A stretch of 64,000 nucleotides of DNA, taken from positions 1 to 64,000 of the forward strand of contig CAXHJY010000750.1 of the NCBI GenBank assembly GCA_964016885.1, given 5' to 3'. Origin of the DNA: Eledone cirrhosa. Its lineage: Eukaryota. The notes under the pieces are model-generated. The model did not search any database. It had not been told where the DNA came from and was given only the letters and a program-made list of their open reading frames with translations. The position numbers and the translations under genes were made by a program. This document shows positions 1 through 38,300 of this stretch, in pieces (within the stretch, counting starts at the first letter, position 1; each line of letters begins with the position of its first letter).

Positions 1-9837
<9,837 letters not shown>

Positions 9838-10262
9838 AAACGAAATTTAATTCGTTTCGTTATTTGTTTTTATCGTCTCCGCTGAACCGGTACGTACTTA
9901 CGCTCTATGCAAATTAGTCTGCCCACTACTAATTTTCATAGAAAAAGCATATAACGATATGTGCTTTTACGATTCTCTAGAAAGGCCGGAAGATAGGTAA
10001 ATATTGCTGATGAGATGTACCAACATCGAAACTAGTCCAATATTCCTTGTCTGGCTTTCTGGAGAATAGAGGAAAGGTGTTTCCTCGAAAACCAGTATGA
10101 CTCTAAAAACCGGTTTGTCTGTGTGTTTACATACAGAATAGCTGGACACTCACAGTAAAGTGTCCAGTGAAAAACTCGGTACATCTACATATGTACACGT
10201 GGTGTGTATTCATATGCATACTAGTATTTCAGTATACATATGTGGATGTACATTTTTAACTT
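9838..10262 (+). mobile_element. Solo diverged retrozyme-like monomer (~425 bp), inverted relative to the adjacent array
   Basis: Largely collinear blocks shared with the reverse complement of the 420-bp unit (TTTATCGT, TATGCAAATT, TTGCTGATGA, GAAACTAGT, TTCC..TTGTC, GCTGGACACT, GTATACATAT); contains an HHR. Confidence 0.8.
10000..10044 (+). ncRNA. Type I hammerhead ribozyme, minimal stem III, canonical core
   Basis: AATATTG-CTGATGA-GATGT(ACCA)ACATC-GAAA-C(TA)GTC^-CAATATT: perfect 7-bp stem I, 5-bp stem II, palindromic ACTAGT stem III, GUC cleavage triplet ending at 10037. Confidence 0.92.
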
Positions 10263-10494
10263 AATTGTTTATATATATATGTATATATGTATATATATGT
10301 ATGTATATATGTATATATATATATGTATATATGTATATATATATATGTATATATGTATATATATATGTATATATGTATATATATATGTATATATGTATAT
10401 ATATATATATGTATATATATGTATATATGTATATATATATATATGTATTATATATATATATGTATATATGTATATATGTATATATGTATATATG

Positions 10495-10525
<31 letters not shown>

Positions 10526-10606
10526 GTATATATGTATATATATATGTATATATATATGTATATATATAGTATATTATATATATATGTATATATATATGTA
10601 TATATA

Positions 10607-10680
<74 letters not shown>
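10263..10680. repeat. (TA)n/(TATG)n microsatellite
   Basis: Direct inspection. Confidence 0.95.
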
Positions 10681-13330
10681 AACAGGAAAAATGAAACGAA
10701 ATTTCATTTCCCACTCTTAGTACGGCTGTTACTTAAATATAAGTATGTACACGTACATACATATATATATACAGACGTACAGTAGTATATATATATATAC
10801 ATACATGCACACATATATATATGTACGTATGGATTCACGGAACATTTATTATAATGCTCGGAGTGTTTGTAAACAAACATCCCGTATTAAGCCGTAGTGT
10901 CCAGCAACCATCGTTGCTCGTTTGTTCAACACTGACAAAGGAACGCTGTACTAGTTTCAAGCTTATTAGCTATCATCAGCAACGTATACCTTCCTGCCAG
11001 ATTGTTGAACGTATATACTTACCTTATGCATATTAACGGCTGAGTAGCCCAATTTGCATATCGAGTGGTTAATCGGCCGGGTGCACCGAATACGATAAAC
11101 AGGAAAAATGAAACGAAATTTCATTCCCACTCTTAGTACGGCTGTTACTTAAATATAAGTATGTACACGCACATACATATATGTATACAGACGTACAGTA
11201 GTATGTATATATATATACATACATGCACACATATATATATGTACGTATGGATTCACCGAACATTTATTATAATGCTCGGAGTGTTTGTAAACAAACATCC
11301 CGTATTAAGCCGTAGTGTCCAGCAACATCGTTGCTCGTTTGTTCAACACTGACAAAGGAACGCTGTACTAGGTCAAGCTTATTAGCTATCATCAGCAACG
11401 TATACCTTCCTGCCAGATTGTTGAACGTATATACTTACCTTATGCATATTAACGGCTGAGTAGCCCAATTTGCATATCGAGTGGGTTAATCGGCCGGGTG
11501 CACCGAATACGATAAACAGGAAAAATGAAACGAAATTTCATTTCCCACTCTTAGTACGGCTGTTACTTAAATATAAGTATGTACACGTACATACATATAT
11601 GTATACAGACGTACAGTAGTATGTATATATATATACATACATGCACACATATATATATGTACGTATGGATTCACCGAACATTTATTATAATGCTCGGAGT
11701 GTTTGTAAACAAACATCCCGTATTAAGCCGTAGTGTCCAGCAACCATCGTTGCTCGTTTGTTCAACACTGACAAAGGAACGCTGTATTAGTTTCAAGCTT
11801 ATTAGCTATCATCAGCAACGTATACCTTCCTGCCAGATTGTTGAACGTATATACTTACCTTATGCATATTAACGGCTGAGTAGCCCAATTTGCATATCGA
11901 GTGGGTTAATCGGCCGGGTGCACCGAATACGATAAACAGGAAAAATGAAACGAAATTTCATTTCCCACTCTTAGTACGGCTGTTACTTAAATATAAGTAT
12001 GTACACGCACATACATATATGTATACAGACGTACAGTAGTATGTATATATATATACATACATGCACACATATATATATGTACGTATGGATTCACCGAACA
12101 TTTATTATAATGCTCGGAGTGTTTGTAAACAAAGCATCCCGTATTAAGCCGTAGTGTCCAGCAACCATCGTTGCTCGTTTGTTCAACACTGACAAAGGAA
12201 CGCTGTACTAGGTCAAGCTTATTAGCTATCATCAGCAACGTATACCTTCCTGCCAGATTGTTGAACGTATATACTTACCTTATGCATATTAACGGCTGAG
12301 TAGCCCAATTTGCATATCGAGTGGGTTAATCGGCCGGGTGCACCGAATACGATAAACAGGAAAAATGAAACGAAATTTCATTTCCCACTCTTAGTACGGC
12401 TGTTACTTAAATATAAGTATGTACACGTACATACATATATGTATACAGACGTACAGTAGTATGTATATATATATACATACATGCACACATATATATATGT
12501 ACGTATGGATTCACCGAACATTTATTATAATGCTCGGAGTGTTTGTAAACAAACATCCCGTATTAAGCCGTAGTGTCCAGCAACCATCGTTGCTCGTTTG
12601 TTCAACACTGACAAAGGAACGCTGTATTAGTTTCAAGCTTATTAGCTATCATCAGCAACGTATACCTTCCTGCCAGATTGTTGAACGTATATACTTACCT
12701 TATGCATATTAACGGCTGAGTAGCCCAATTTGCATATCGAGTGGGTTAATCGGCCGGGTGCACCGAATACGATAAACAGGAAAAATGAAACGAAATTTCA
12801 TTTCCCACTCTTAGTACGGCTGTTACTTAAATATAAGTATGTACACGTACATACATATATGTATACAGACATACAGTAGCATGTATATATAAATACATGC
12901 ACACATATATATATGTACGTATGGATTCACCGAACATTTATTATAATGCTCGGAGTGTTTGTAAACAAACATCCCGTATTAAGCCGTAGTGTCCAGCAAC
13001 CATCGTTGCTCGTTTGTTCAACACTGACAAAGGAACACTGTACTAGTTTCAAGCTTATTAGCTATCATCAGCAACGTATACCTTCCTGCCAGATTGTTGA
13101 ACGTGTATACTTACCTTATGCATATTAACGGCTGAGTAGCCCAATTTGCATATCGAGTGGGTTAATCGGCCGGGTGCACCGAATACGATAAACAGGAAAA
13201 ATGAAACGAAATTTCATTTCCCACTCTTAGTACGGCTGTTACTTAAATATAAGTATGTACACGTACATACATATATGTATACAGACGTACAGTAGTATGT
13301 ATATATATATATACATACATGCACACATAT
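10681..13330 (-). repeat. Tandem array of ~416-420-bp units (6 full + 1 partial), one HHR per full unit: putative non-LTR retrozyme
   Basis: AACAGGAAAAATGAAACG recurs at 10681, 11098, 11515, 11935, 12355, 12775 and 13191; units are nearly identical. Confidence 0.93.
10943..10985 (-). ncRNA. Type I hammerhead motif, array unit 1 (homologs at 11360-11401, 11779-11821, 12200-12241, 12619-12661, 13035-13077)
   Basis: Minus strand ACGTTG-CTGATGA-T-AGCT(AATA)AGCT-T-GAAA-C(TA)GTA^-CAGCGT; the base of stem II is a U.U mismatch. Confidence 0.85.
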
Positions 13331-13723
13331 AATTCAAATGGATGAGACATAATATATTTTAAAAATATCATCTTTCTTTCTTTCTCTCCTCTACACTGGA
13401 CGTGATTTATCTGTCGGCTATTTTAACTGTATCCATTCCCTCCTTAACCTCCCACTTGTACGATGATCATCTGTCCCCAAGCTGCCTACTATTTTTTCAC
13501 TTCCTCAATACATTTCTCTCTCCCATATCTCCTTCTCTCTCTATCTCGCTCTGTTGTTTTTCTTTACATACATCTCTTCATCTTCTTCTTTTATCTTCGT
13601 TTTTCTTCGTCTTTCTTTCTCTATAACTGTCCTCAACAGTTTCACTACCAAATCAACTTTTTAAATGGAAGTTGCATTATTCTAAGGTATGTCAAAATTA
13701 TTTATAAAACAGCTTATATATTG

Positions 13724-14409: not shown

Positions 14410-16379
<1,970 letters not shown>

Positions 16380-17352
16380 CTTCAAAATAATTGCGTCAAA
16401 GCACAAAAACTTATCTTACAGCAGGATCTGGATGCCATATACAGATGGGCGGAAGAAAACAACATGCAGTTTAATACTGGCAAATTCCAAGCCCTACAAT
16501 ACAAACCTGCAAACACAAACACAAATATAGCGGAACACAGCTACACAGGACCAGGAGGGACCGATATCCCCGTGTCAAAATCGATACGAGACCTGGGCAT
16601 AGACATGAGCGATGATGCATCTTTTTCTTCTCACATCATGAAGGTGGCGACAACATGTAGACGATTCGCTGGCTGGATCTTGAGGACTTTCCTTACAAGA
16701 GATCGAGACACCATGTTGACACTGTGGAGGACTTTTGTCCTAAGCCGCCTGGACTACTGCTCCCAGCTGTGGTCACCCCATAGTGTCAAACTAACCACGG
16801 AGCTTGAGGCAATCCAGCGAAGCTACACCAAGAGGATTGCCAAGATGAGGGAGACAAGCTACTGGGAGAGGCTAAAGGAACTGAACCTCTACTCCTTGGA
16901 GCGAAGACGGGAGAGATACGCAGTGATCTACATGTGGAAAATCCTGGAGGGACTAGCACCAAACTTTGGCATTGGGAGCTGGACCAACCGTCGAACAGGA
17001 CGTCACTGTGTGGTGCCAAAGGTCCCGTCTTCCACATCTAGAATAAGGAGCAGGTATTGCAATAGCCTGGGATTCAAGGGCCCGCAACTCTTCAACAGGC
17101 TGCCGAGGCATCTGCGAGACTTGCATGACGTGGAGGTGGATGTCTTTAAGAAATATCTCGACACTTTGTTATCCAGGATCCCGGATGAGCCCACAGCAAG
17201 ACACGAGGGAAACCTAAGGGCAGCAGCAACAAACTCCCTCCTACACCAGTGGCCAACCTATACAGGCTGGAGATAAAATGTGTAGCAACAAGGGCGGTGC
17301 ACCAGCATGGCCTCAGCCAGATGGCTGAAACAGGTAAAAGAGTAAAAGAGTA
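16380..17352 (+). mobile_element. 5'-truncated CR1/L2-group LINE (C-terminal RT part of ORF2, open to 17276) with (TAAAAGAG)n tail
   Basis: [38 protein letters not shown] and [19 protein letters not shown] are typical CR1-group C-terminal RT motifs; short tandem-repeat 3' tail. Confidence 0.92.
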
Positions 17353-18696
<1,344 letters not shown>

Positions 18697-21840: not shown

Positions 21841-24106
<2,266 letters not shown>

Positions 24107-24327
24107 TTTCGTTTCTGAATTTGTTTAGCAAGATTCTTTATCTGAAATCGTGTGTTGAAATCGATATTGTTATACTTTGGGAGGGTCATGTTGCCAATAA
24201 GAAACACGCACCAGTTGCTTTCACTTCAATTTATTATATATTTATAAATTTATAAATTTACAAATTTACAAACTTATAAATTTCTGGTTGGTTGGTTGGT
24301 TCCACAACCAGATACTTGTTTATATAT

Positions 24328-24372
24328 AGTCATAGTCCTTTCGTCACACACTCTGTGACCTCTTCAGTGACT
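24328..24372 (-). ncRNA. Minimal hammerhead motif
   Basis: Minus strand AGTCA-CTGAAGA-G-GTCACA(GAGTG)TGTGAC-GAAA-GGAC-TA^-TGACT. Confidence 0.7.
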
Positions 24373-24497
24373 GGGGATTCCTTTCCTTTGTTTCTGTGCC
24401 TTTCCTTTCTTCTATCCTACGCCAGTTTGTTTCTGTGTGTGTGTTGTGTATAACAATATATATATATACATATATATATATACATATATATATATAC

Positions 24498-24530
<33 letters not shown>

Positions 24531-24684
24531 CATATAGATTTTGAGTTTATGTTGGTTGTATACCAACACCTCAGTATGCAGGCTGGAGCACTCGACGAAG
24601 TGCGCAGGTTGGTTTGGTTACTCCGGAGTAGTGTAAAATAAAGTTAAATAAAAGTCAAATGATTAAAATTTAGCTTCGTTTATT

Positions 24685-24739
24685 ACTGCTATATATATTT
24701 CAGTGACAGCCATCTTTGGCTGTGACCTCTTCAGGCAGT
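24685..24739 (-). ncRNA. Minimal hammerhead motif
   Basis: Minus strand ACTGC-CTGAAGA-GGTCACAGCCA(AAGA)TGGCTGTCACT-GAAA-TATATA-TA^-GCAGT. Confidence 0.8.
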
Positions 24740-25923
24740 TTGAATTAGTATGGTATAGACAAGTACATATGTTGTTTAGGTGTATGATATTGTCAATACT
24801 CTGATATGCCCAGTTCCTTGTTGGGTTGTTAATTCACTGGGGAACTGGAGTCATATGAATTCAAACAAACGAATTTTAGTGTCACAGGTCCCCTTCTCCT
24901 CTCATTGGTCAGTTATTAGTGTTGTCATTGTTGGAGTTAGCTTAAAAATTGATAAAATGGTAGAAGGGACAAGGTGTTGAAGGAACAAAATATCAAAAAA
25001 TGTGTCAAACTTCCCATTGTTCAGTTCTGAGAGCATTCCTCAGTCAGAAGTCTATAGAATTCTTTCTGGGGTGAGGCTCCCTGTAGTGTTTATGCCTGCT
25101 ATTGTTCAGTACATTTGACCTCGACCATTATTTTGGTACTGTTGTTGTTGTAGTGGTCAGCTTATATCTTGCTGCTGCTAACAGTTTAGAAGTATTCAGT
25201 TTGTGTTTTCTCTTCATCCCATCCGCCACCATCGTAGTGGTGGTGGCGGGGGGGGGGGGGTTATTTCATGTATATGAAGAAATATAAGGCAATAAATGAA
25301 GAAAACAGAAGATAAATAAATAATATAATAAAATAAAATAATTAATATAATTTGTGTAATTTGAAAATAAATAAATAAATAGAGAATAAAGAATAAAGAG
25401 TAAATGAGAGATTGGTGAAAAAGTAATGATAATGTATATGGAGAAGTGAGAAATAATGTAGGATAAAGTGTGTGTGTGTGTGTGCTATAACCAATCTCAA
25501 GGTCAGAATATGTTGGATAGATTGGTATGATACAAGATGTTAAGATGAGATATTCAATGTGTTTGTGTTATAATCTATCTCAACTTAAAATAAATATAAA
25601 TATAAGGTTATACAGTGAAGAGGGCAGAAAACAAATAACAAATTAATAAAGAGAAATCAAGATTTAAGATTGGAACTTTAAAGTCAGAAATCTGGTAAAT
25701 TAAAAGTGTTTGTGTTATAGATGTTGGCCAGATTATTATGGCTGTGTCCGATTCTGTCTCTAGGCTATCATGGTGTCTGCTCCGCCTGGGTTGTTCCCTA
25801 TGGCTTGAGGGGAGTTCACAACCTAGGGTGTTGTAATTGTCCATATAGCTTGAGGGAGGTCTGGCCGAGAGGTGTTTTCATGCTCTGTAGAAGTCCCTAT
25901 AGCTGTAGAAGTCCCTATATATA

Positions 25924-26202: not shown

Positions 26203-27296
26203 ACCAGATAGAATAATGCGTACAGCAAAAAAAGTAATATTGTTGGAATATAAACCTTTAAAAATACAGGACAAGAAACTAAAATAAAACTTTAAAAGAA
26301 TAGGACAAGAAACTAAGATAAAACTTTAAAAGAATAGGATAAGAAACTAAGATAAAACTTTAAAGAATTGGACAAGAAATAAAAAAATTTACAATAATAT
26401 TAGTGGCATAATTTTTATTGGTAAAAAATCGAGTTCCACATTCATAGACTCTGGGTTCCACATTCAGAGGTAGTCGTCAGACCGGGGGGATCATTTGATT
26501 CTGGTTTGAACACCAATTGGGCCATAACCATACCCCTATTTCATCATTCGGCGACACGCCTCATGTGTCATGCATAATGTGAATGGACCCATGGGCCCAT
26601 GAGCACAGATCTTGAGCAGCAGCAGACGGTCTTGTCGTCCCGCTCATACTTGATCTTGACCAACCCGTCCATCTTCTCCTTGCATCTTGTCCTTGAGTTC
26701 AAGTCCGGCAGTCCAGATGAATGCGTGCCACAGCTTTCTGGTACAGGAAGGGGGAGCAGGAGGACTGGAGGGATGACGGGACAGAGGGAGGGAGGACCGG
26801 TGGTTGAGGGAGGTGCCGTAGTCGGTGGTCAGAGTCGACATCTTGTCCCGGTCGTCTTCTCCATCTCCGTTTGGTGTTGCGGGACCAGAAGTGCATTCTT
26901 GAAGGAGACCTGCAGCTGCATCGGCCAATTCTTCTTGCAATGGTCATTCTGACAGAGCAGAACTGCTCAGCCAACCAACCCCAACCAGAACCAACCGCTC
27001 AGGGGCAACGCACAATGAGAGCATGACAATTATTATGCACTAATCAAGAAGATACTGGGGCATAGCACAGGAAACGAATAAAAAAATGTTGCCACTAATA
27101 TTATTGTAAAATTTTTTATTTCTTGTCCAATTCTTTAAAATTTTATCTTAGTTTCTTGTCCTATTCTTTTAAAGTTTTATCTTAGTTTCTTGTCCTATTC
27201 TTTTAAAGTTTTATTTTAGTTTCTTGTCCTGTATTTTTAAAGGTTTATATTCCAACAATATTACTTTTTTTTGCTGTATGAATTTTTCTATCTGGT
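26203..27296. repeat. ~205-bp inverted repeats (26203-26408 / 27090-27296) containing ~3.3 copies of a 34-bp unit and flanking a GC-richer core
   Basis: Near-perfect reverse complement; unit GGACAAGAAACTAAGATAAAACTTTAAAAGAATA at 26269, 26303, 26337 and 26370. Confidence 0.9.
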
Positions 27297-35429: not shown

Positions 35430-38300
35430 AAAAGTATGACCCCGACGGCAGAGCTCAAGCCGTTTCGACGGCTATTTCTGGACTAAATTATAATTTTTAG
35501 CCTGGTGAATAAATAGCCGAACTTTTCAAGGGGGTACTTCCAGATATGGGAAGATTGTAGTTGTCAAGAGGGTTGGTTAAAATTTGTTATAAACACAAAT
35601 AAATCTATCATGGCATTTGGTGGGAAGTAGGGATAGCTGAACTTGCCTGTAGAACAATAGGGGAGTGAGTGGAGCGGTCAAGCTTGAAAGTGATAACTAT
35701 ACATCAAATTCTAAGGATAGTGTATGAAGTGGGGGAGGGAGGTTATAGAATAGGTAAATCGAAAGAGAGTAGGAGACAATAAAAGATACTAGAAAGAAAT
35801 AAAAAAAAAATATATATAAAATTAGATAGCGAGAAAAGAATAAAGAAATCACAATGCTATCTTAGAATTACAGGTTAATAAGTTGAGAATAGAAAAAACT
35901 TATAGAAATTACAAAACAGATACAAACTTAAAGGGGTTTTTAACAATTCTGCTATAAGTAGTTAGTAAAACGTATTCGGCCAATTCTATCTTAAAATAAC
36001 AGGGGTGGGGGAACTGATGCTACAAGGCCCGATGGGCTGCATCGGGGTAGGCGAAAGGGGAAAGCAGACGAGGAAGAAAATAGGGGGTGGAAGGAAGTGA
36101 TAGGATGAGACAGGGGGAAGAAGGAGACAAAGAGGAAAAGAAAAGAGATACATTTACCTATGTAAGCTGGGGCTTCCCCTAACTTATTCGGCAAGTGTGT
36201 GTGTGTGTGTGGGGGGGGGGGGGGGAGTATCAGCCCTTGTCTACCCACCCGGGTCGTTATAGGGTTTGAGGGCGAGGTAAGTCCTACGCAATCTGTGTTT
36301 GCATGCGGTTACCAATTCATCTTTCTTTTTTAGGAGTTGGTCCTTCGAAAACAGTATAAGTTACACGGACGGCGTCCTCCCGTGTAAGAGTTTGCTCTGG
36401 ACAGTAAGCTCCAAGTGAGATTGTAGGTTATATTGTTATCTTGGTGGTCCCAGATGTGGCCCGAATGTGTAGTGGCATGTCGCCGAACCGGGTTTCGGAA
36501 AGTGTGTCGGTGTTGGTAGTGCCGGGTCTTGAAGTCACACGTGGTTAACCCTATATAAGCTTTGTTGGAGGTGTCCGTCCTCACGTTGCACTGGTAGATC
36601 ACGTTACATTCTCGGCATTTGTTGTTGAGGGGGAACGTGGATCTATCAGGGCAGTTACACCTCCTGGTCGGCTCTCCATTGATGTCTAGGTTATTTCTTC
36701 CATAGGGGTTGAGATTTTTGTTGTTTGAGGAGACGATGTTTTGTGCGAAGTTAGGTGTGGTGCTGTAGGAGAGTTTGATGGTGTTGTGATAGCGGTGTTG
36801 TAGTGGGAAGTGTTTTTCGAGGAGTCTACAGAAGATTTTCCCGATAGGTGTTGCCACCTCGGCATTGTGGGGAGGATTGAACCACGTTACGTTGCGTGAG
36901 CGGCGGTGTCGCCTGCTGGTTCCGCTAAGGGAAGCTGAATAAAAGGATATTTCCTCCCGGAAGCCACTCCGCTTGAGGGCCTCGTTGTAATGAGGCACGT
37001 CTTCGTCGAATATCTGTTCATTAGCGGACAAACGAGATATGCGGAGGGAGATGTTTTTAACCAGGTTATTGGAGATGTTTCTAGGATGGTTAGAGCGGCT
37101 ATGATGTAGTGCAGGTTGTCGTTTGGTTTCCTGTATGGGTAGTACAGATCATTTTCGAGGTTAAGGGTAACGTCCAGGAAATTGACTCGGGTTAGGGACG
37201 TTTGTAGGGTGATTTTAAATCCCCAGTCCCGGAAGAAGTTGATTAGTTGTTTACGGACCCGGTCTGTACTACTGGGGTTGTACCCTTTGAGGGTGAGGAG
37301 CCCATCATCCCGGTACAATCTACCGCCGAATGCAGGAAACATTTCGGTGAGTTTAAATAGTAGGAATAATCCTATAAGATCTGTGACCTCGGCCGAATCC
37401 GTCGCGCCGATACTGACGTCGAAGGGGGAGTCTGGAGCTCTCTTTATCCACTTGGAGTTGTCGAAAAGTAGGACTGTCTTCCTGGCGTGGAGGATGATAT
37501 TTCTTTACTGGTCAGTGATGGGTGTGAGTGTTTCGGCAAAGTCCAAGGCGGCCGTAAGGAGCGGTAAGGTAATAGATGCATAGTAACTCTCTATGTCAAA
37601 CTGGATGAATTTTGTGTCTCGTTTGTCCTCCATATTCCTGAACCATGAGATTACTTCCTGGGTGCTGACCCATAAGCTAAGTCTCACGTTTTGCTTAACT
37701 TTTGGTATAACTCGGTCTAGGATCTTTTTACTGATTCTCCCTATGTCCGACTTCGTTGGGTTTATATGCCTAATGGATGGTTTGCGGTCGAAGTCGGATT
37801 TGTGGTCCCTCAGTGTGAAGTAGGTAGTCTGTGAGTCTAGGGGTTCCGTGCGGTCGGCGACCCCGAGTCTGGAGGTAATTTGTTGTCCATCTCGATTAAT
37901 GTCCTCGATAATTGAATGGTTAGCCTTTTTATAGGTGGAGTTTAGGCTGCTCCTGATCATTGTGTGGTATCTGTCAGGGTTAACGAAGTAGAGGTTTCCA
38001 GTTTTGTCCGAGTGCACCATGATGTCGTTGGTGTTTTCATACTCTGTTATTTTGCTACGGAGTTGTAGGAATCTGTTGTGTCTGGGTTTGAATTTAATGC
38101 TCTTGACCAGGTGGAAAAAGTCGTCTCGAAGGGTGAGAGCATAGGGTTCGGAGGGGGAGATTTATAGGTATTGAATCCGAATCTCTCCTTGGTGTCGAAG
38201 TCCTGATTGTCGCGGTATCTATCGTAGAAAAAAGTTCTCCATCTTAGTCTTTTCGCAAAAAACGTCGATTTTTTTGCGTGAGCATCCGAAGGTAAAGTTT
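35430..38300 (-). mobile_element. Penelope-like retroelement, frameshifted RT + GIY-YIG endonuclease (about 38280-36330), 3' UTR/pseudo-LTR with hammerhead
   Basis: FIQFDIESYY, LYRDDGL, VNFLDVTLNL, VTWFNPP and NVIYQC...AYIGLT..FKTR across ORF fragments 37505-38020, 36887-37342 and 36330-37031. Confidence 0.95.
35439..35535 (-). ncRNA. Penelope-associated type I hammerhead with U3-A8 core and full stem III
   Basis: Minus strand CCCC-TTGAAAA-GTTCGGCTATTT...AAATAGCCGTC-GAA-ACGGC(TTGAGCTCT)GCCGT-C^-GGGG. Confidence 0.8.

Follow-up and report, generated by a model that had tools for sequence, protein, structure and literature searches.

A truncated retrozyme copy in a TA microsatellite of Eledone cirrhosa, probably inserted by the enzyme of a Penelope-like element

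We have analysed a window of 64,000 nucleotides from Eledone cirrhosa, i.e., the whole stretch at positions 1 to 64,000 of contig CAXHJY010000750.1 (assembly GCA_964016885.1). In it lies a 433-nt non-coding copy which very probably represents a non-LTR retrozyme that the reverse transcriptase/endonuclease of a Penelope-like element (PLE) pasted into a TA microsatellite. The copy works like a PLE passenger and is not an autonomous PLE. Its family (B) and a sister family (A), with ~39,000 intact cores between them, both retain a two-site insertion footprint of PLE type, placed at homologous positions; the genome also harbours a young PLE which targets TA, is apparently intact and has ends of similar geometry. 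Published work proposes PLEs as the mobiliser of animal retrozymes and, in the available portions of the two papers, leaves the mechanism open (PMC7229834, 10.64898/2026.07.22.740005). Since RNA templates, start sites and a candidate enzyme are now defined, the mobilisation mechanism and the use of circles as template become testable in vitro. The insertion record is the useful part of this analysis, while the stem covariation alone is ordinary. The features of the window that matter here are listed below, S1 and S2 being the two sites at which insertions end.

3..9837, no strand: (TA)n-rich tract of 9.8 kb, abutting the truncated 5' end of the window copy
9838..10270, forward strand: 5'-truncated copy of the family-B retrozyme unit (the window copy), 433 nt of the 466-bp unit, with its 3' end at S1
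9995..10047, forward strand: type I hammerhead motif, recognised from the sequence, a sub-threshold match to Rfam HH9 and a motif scan
10271..10677, no strand: (TA)n-rich tract, the shared target, abutting the 3' ends of the window copy and of the array
10678..13331, reverse strand: family-A array, 6.3 units of ~420 bp, with its 3' end (10678) at S2

The window copy spans positions 31 to about 463 of the family-B unit, with ~33 nt missing, and differs from a natural unit of this family by 2 substitutions and 2 one-base indels. At least 39 other full-length matches at 99% identity are found in the genome (40 were scored among 887 candidates), and many of them are spaced at 466 bp. The preliminary description had presented the sequence as a single diverged copy with its right end at 10262; neither statement survives, and the true right end is at 10270. 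Parts of the family-B sequence are also present in 4 public runs (3 studies, 3 coded organisms; the runs compared are contigs of unrecorded type), which indicates that the family-B copy is no assembly artefact. All 4 runs show two letter changes in stem II, namely 10015 A>T and 10026 T>A. Of the 6 runs listed, none is on record as RNA, which speaks neither for nor against expression.

According to exact patterns, B-type cores number 4,175 + 5,312, i.e., ~9,500 (reversed-pattern controls 0 and 0), and A-type cores 28,165 + 1,670, i.e., ~29,800 (controls 0 and 5), which gives ~39,300 intact cores for the two families in the 3.0-Gb assembly. For the pattern with 5,312 matches, 99 of the 100 matches listed are B-type. 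The units of B are 466–469 bp long and those of A 420–484 bp, with one of 538 bp. As had been supposed, there are at least two subfamilies, since A and B form separate unit clusters whose main representatives are 62–64% identical. Units of 420–484 bp repeat head to tail with no unique interior, each with one type I hammerhead, and are dispersed in many copies; six-frame translations of the loci listed contain no RT-like frame inside the units. In addition, the predicted RNA circles are 63–73% paired, with z between -6.5 and -12 against two-letter block shuffles for all 9 of 9 units. Judged by the features that sequence can test, the family-B unit is a young, high-copy, protein-free repeat of the non-LTR retrozyme type; the tandem arrangement holds for the family, and the window copy itself is a truncated monomer. 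A 591-nt "unit" was rejected, as it consists of an A and a B lying side by side. Searches with patterns of more distant cores gave mostly mutated A or B copies and a few unrelated or chance motifs; among those of these loci that were scanned for frames, none in the output listed adjoins a same-strand PLE frame. Dispersed hammerhead-like motifs at four loci (L098, L102, L112 and L115, around 1500) share the GAAACTAGT end but have TGAAG/CTTCA as stem I, and they may belong to an older family.

The hammerhead of the window copy has a CUGANGA...GAAA...UH core and three stems with stem I open, i.e., it is of type I. Stem I is formed by ATATTG (10001–10006) and CAATAT (10038–10043), with a bulged extension of AGG (9995–9997) and CCT (10045–10047); the CUGAUGA core lies at 10007–10013, stem II (GATGT/ACATC, 5 bp) at 10014–10027 with GAAA after it, and GUC at 10035–10037, where cleavage is predicted after C10037. 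The changes in stems I and II, the AGG/CCT extension and the GUC were all found as they had been described before. The core, on the other hand, had been called invariant, and the six array ribozymes in the window contradict this: 2 read GAAACTAGT, 2 GAAACTAAT and 2 GACCTAGT, so that 2 of 6 cores are intact and 4 are mutated. The core motif is a property of the family, not of the window array. At the gathering threshold Rfam gives no family in the window; the HH9 match at 9989–10060 scores 35.2 bits (E 1.2e-6) against a gathering score of 52. Many microRNA matches in the E-value mode of Rfam were discarded, as they fall on the TA-like arm described below and on the tracts.

Helix III consists of one A-U pair capped by a CUAG tetraloop, and the palindrome ACUAGU (10031–10036) is kept in families A and B. 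A comparable helix III design in salamanders cleaves poorly as monomer and well as dimer, according to the available parts of two reports (PMC7229834, PMC6155905), the first of which also states that a weak helix III needs dimers and that the circles are ligated by RtcB. By analogy, poor monomer and good dimer cleavage would likewise be expected for the present families. The whole window copy folds far better than its shuffles (z -9.4); in the minimum-free-energy fold of the ribozyme, the core CUG pairs with the UAG loop and replaces the active fold. No loop-loop consensus was found in the literature searched, and tertiary contacts are therefore not claimed.

As stated earlier, most of the window copy (9838–10270, forward strand) can be aligned with the reverse complement of the array unit; the score is 175, and the best of 300 dinucleotide shuffles reaches 50. 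The two flanks of the ribozyme each beat all 500 shuffles: 9838–9985 scores 72 (shuffle maximum 44) and 10051–10262 scores 95 (maximum 57). Within the latter, 10051–10170 is weak, its score of 31 being reached by 7 of 500 shuffles, and 10171–10262 is the TA-like arm. Both the window copy (10180–10250) and the array units carry, just upstream of S1, a long self-complementary TA/TG-like arm which resembles the target microsatellite.

Covariation was examined in an alignment of 11 hand-picked rows, i.e., the window copy and 10 of 39 clusters, aligned by sequence alone and excluding single-copy mutated cores and unrelated cores. In these rows, 96% of the ribozyme stem cells are paired (0 of 500 shuffles reach this, and slid controls give 32–49%); a second helix III pair, counted here, would close a loop of just 2 nt. 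In each of stems I and II, three pairs have changed on both sides, and 4 of these 6 pairs change solely between A and B. Two of the five covariation measures stay within the shuffles, namely the pairs changed on both sides (138/500) and the further pair types (256/500). As paired-cell counts overstate the number of events, we have also used a two-sequence test which avoids this. Among 92 confident pairs of B1, 44 differ in A1 and 25 of these stay paired (15.4±2.9 expected, p≤0.0014), and for the double changes from B1 to A1 the figure is 12 of 18 (4.5±1.8 expected, p≤0.0002). When the ribozyme stems and the TA-like arm are taken out, the result is borderline, with p of 0.05–0.15 in three of four A/B comparisons and 0.02–0.05 in the fourth; from B1 to A1 the values are 0.05 and 0.11. 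Within family A, 4 of 5 double changes stay paired (p 0.0014), and between B1 and B2 the same test shows no compensatory change. Since most compensatory changes lie on the single A-versus-B branch, the independent events should be few.

Overall, the compensatory change of the hammerhead stems described earlier is real, but by itself it is expected and ordinary. It had been taken to point to selection on a functional RNA. This stands insofar as the structure is kept despite sequence change; it does not extend to selection on the window copy or for the host, since 4 of 6 adjacent array cores are already mutated. The pattern is best read as selection that acted on the replicating element between lineages.

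The insertions in the genome show a fixed arrangement of ends. The S1/S2 windows were set after the data were seen, and the loci had been picked because their core is intact or because they are close to the queries. On this basis, one of the two sites holds 47 of the 49 distinct 3' ends of B (23 at S1, 24 at S2, sites ~70 nt apart) and 64 of the 80 of A (32 + 32, aligned sites ~60 nt apart); TA repeats follow in 42 of the 47 and 57 of the 64 cases. The 5' ends of B, 54 in number, are dispersed over unit positions 8–446 and do not pile up at the cut site. Every strand switch within an insertion joins 5' ends (21/21 for B, 26/26 for A). For two-armed insertions with both ends at S1 or S2, one of each is used in 12 of 13 cases (B) and 13 of 14 (A), and for this total of 25/27 the binomial chance is ~3e-6; in a further 2 B and 10 A insertions an end lies outside S1 and S2, and another 6 (B) and 2 (A) extend past the edge of the locus. 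PLE insertions are built of partial tandems with an inverted copy truncated at its 5' end, and just one of their ends has a tail; in vitro a PLE starts reverse transcription at two internal sites on AT-rich targets, as far as the available text of the two sources goes (PMC8557442, PMC11167929). The footprint of A and B matches this arrangement: in the two families, too, the tail is confined to one end, a 5'-truncated copy is inverted and the target is a microsatellite, as expected of elements mobilised by a PLE.

In the insertion at C1:30.83 Mb, 7 + 13 units make up the two arms; the 15 units examined, from both arms, are of a single haplotype (for the junction unit, as far as it aligns) and carry three letters absent from every other insertion sampled, which favours repeated copying of one small template. 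In the 31-unit array at C1:5.74 Mb, variants recur along the array, and in the window array, in RNA order, unit 2 equals unit 4 and unit 3 nearly equals unit 5. These recurring variants show that arrays also grow later by local duplication, as has happened in the window.

The ribozyme-sense strand is forward for the window copy and reverse for the family-A array, with the 3' ends opposed across ~407 bp of TA. The two are tail-to-tail, not head-to-head as the preliminary description had it. Insertion into the same (TA)n tract is correct, but a joint head-to-head event is wrong, since the orientation is opposite to that of 47/47 within-insertion switches. Given the different families and the forward-then-reverse order, the reverse of every such switch, the window copy and the array are two independent insertions sharing one (TA)n target.

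Regarding the partner, we have sampled two abundant PLE-like families of the same genome, P1 and P2. P1, with at least 150 scored matches at 94–100% identity, has a 995-aa open frame with a weak RVT_1 match below the cut-off and look-alike RT/GIY-YIG clusters in Atlas; it is apparently an intact, young, TA-targeting PLE. Its 3' repeat carries a hammerhead. At 25 loci inspected by eye, 8 ends are at a first site, 16 at or near a second and 1 is unassigned, the sites being ~57 nt apart and mostly in TA; for loci with an inverted upstream copy, opposite sites are used in 2/3 and the same site in 1/3. Between the 3' repeat of P1 and the units of A or B there is no detectable homology (nine of ten comparisons are within the shuffle range and the tenth is of low complexity), so P1 is a candidate mobiliser by behaviour only. 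For P2, no repeat end was located in the first ~600 nt past the reading frame. An antisense match of 17/20 between the end of the P1 tail (last 20 nt, L249 about 4455–4475) and the S2 region of B (window 9851–9872, just before S2) was not counted, as 24 of 1000 shuffles (B) and 290 of 1000 (A) give the like.

Judging from known retrozymes, tandem arrays would be transcribed, two ribozymes would pair via the ACUAGU palindrome and cut, and unit-length RNA would be ligated into circles. From the footprint, a PLE protein would cut (TA)n and start cDNA at two fixed RNA sites 60–70 nt apart, with one RNA site per DNA end, which would give 5'-truncated copies, arrays and two-armed inverted insertions. 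Copying from S1 meets the ribozyme cut site after ~230 nt, and the window copy runs another 200 nt. Such read-through implies that the template was circular or uncleaved RNA, not a linear cleaved monomer. The window copy is itself probably a dead end, as one ribozyme and an incomplete unit should not be able to release unit-length RNA.

Families A and B have in common the ribozyme fold, with its compensatory changes, and both end sites. Our tentative reading is that in both lineages a TA-targeting PLE enzyme copies RNA circles by rolling-circle reverse transcription, simultaneously at the two ends of the cut DNA and with two fixed starts. If so, arrays of at least 20 units would be laid down in one event, and the putative start sites would have held their positions as the two sequences diverged down to 62% identity. 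PLE recognition would then rest on RNA structure and not on homology to the terminal repeat of the partner, and a comparison of A with B, as a natural experiment, would reveal which features the PLE protein recognises.

It is possible, if somewhat doubtful, that the same element and PLE use a long uncleaved linear array transcript as template, with circles a by-product or absent and the ribozyme unneeded for insertion. The read-through of the cut site fits uncleaved RNA just as well, and RNA that is not processed serves as the main substrate of the anole PLE in the available text of its report (PMC11167929). Many B cores end in GUU (6,166 matches), and the foot of stem II, G-C in B, is a mismatch in 6 of 7 A rows, with a mismatch or wobble in all 11 A rows or A-type listings (7 of them A rows). 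However, the single haplotype over 15 units at C1:30.83 Mb is simplest if one small template was copied repeatedly, and the conservation of the ribozyme through compensatory changes implies a role for cleavage in some step.

It is very unlikely that the units are satellite DNA spread by unequal exchange, rolling-circle DNA or Helitron-like copying, with the ribozyme as passenger. The local duplication in the window array and in the 31-unit array and the mutated cores of the former (4/6) suit such a process, but it covers later array growth only. Already disfavoured by the polarity of the ends, it leaves unexplained the fixed 3' ends with dispersed 5' ends, the 47/47 inversions joining 5' ends, the one end site per arm and the compensatory changes between A and B.

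Movement of a SINE-like non-autonomous element by a LINE (RTE or CR1/L2, for example) through twin priming at microsatellites is most improbable. LINE-1 twin priming also gives 5' truncation and 5' inversion, and LINE fragments are common in the flanks. However, the unit encodes no poly(A) or simple tail, and P1 of the same genome shows like ends. Moreover, the ends lie at two internal positions of the tandem unit, one per arm, which is the tail pattern of PLEs in the accessible parts of the reports (PMC11167929, PMC8557442). Hardly conceivable is a host-selected functional RNA at the locus or a single event that brought both subfamilies. The intact ribozyme and the fold z of -9.4 would suit such a reading, but with many other copies at 99% identity the intactness reflects youth, and the copy sits on a small contig within kilobases of TA. 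Its orientation to the array is opposite to the within-insertion switches, and family A is present within ~1.5 kb at 2 of 37 B loci and P1 at 3 of 37, as expected from a common target.

In the available text of Cervera & de la Pena 2020 (PMC7229834), animal non-LTR retrozymes are likewise non-coding and arranged in tandem, each unit having one type I hammerhead, and they share a GC content below 50%, a highly self-paired predicted circle, several families per genome and coexisting PLEs. The helix III here, one pair with a palindromic tetraloop, resembles that of axolotl HHR_Amex1, and the U-U at the stem II base of family A resembles HHR_Amex2. The present units are 420–484 bp long, in comparison with 150–450 bp in that paper, and microsatellite targeting and inversions, present here, are absent from its description as available ("microsatellite" and "inverted" occur 0 times). 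Cleavage and circular RNA are demonstrated there, whereas the present families are known from sequence. Li, Clavereau & Pollet 2026 (10.64898/2026.07.22.740005), in the sections available, likewise describe monomers, dimers and multimers per family and propose a PLE partner; their evidence is co-occurrence and pLTR homology, while ours is the insertion footprint. Many Xenopus retrozymes match PLE pLTRs in their data, and 8 of 9 predicted retrozyme dimers failed to cleave in vitro. Such pLTR homology is absent here against P1, the one ribozyme-bearing PLE family compared.

As for PLEs themselves (Neptune/Poseidon), the accessible portions of PMC8557442 and PMC11167929 likewise describe partial tandems, an inverted copy with a truncated 5' end, a tail restricted to one end, targets of (TA)n or AT-rich DNA and a hammerhead in the terminal repeat; the PLE tails are 30–40 bp long, compared with 60–70 nt here, and unlike PLEs the present unit has no RT/GIY-YIG reading frame. 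For the anole PLE, the ribozyme is dispensable for insertion according to the available part of its report (PMC11167929). A squid genome paper, in the part available, merely counts 235 hammerheads (PMC6962438). In the open literature, i.e., outside subscription journals and Repbase/Dfam, we have found no description of these families or of a two-site retrozyme footprint.

Several other elements were seen in the window. At 24105–24447 (reverse strand) lies a fragment of the P1 3' repeat, 90% identical, which ends in a TA tract at the second end site of P1 and has its own type I hammerhead (core 24361–24367). Another hammerhead-like motif at 24690–24750 (reverse strand), with CTGAAGA at 24728–24734, a hairpin and GAAA, sits in a different TA-flanked element (~24540–25915). 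A broken PLE-like frame in three pieces at 36330–38161 (reverse strand), with an RDD motif and a GIY-YIG-like end recognised by eye, is related to the abundant 784-aa family P2 (L250/L251); Pfam gave no match for the three broken PLE-like frames in the window. Within a TA tract, a LINE-like 3' fragment was recognised by eye at 16362–17374. Finally, 26250–26384 and 27119–27248, ~750 bp apart, form long inverted repeats of 34-bp units and resemble the ends of a DNA transposon or MITE.
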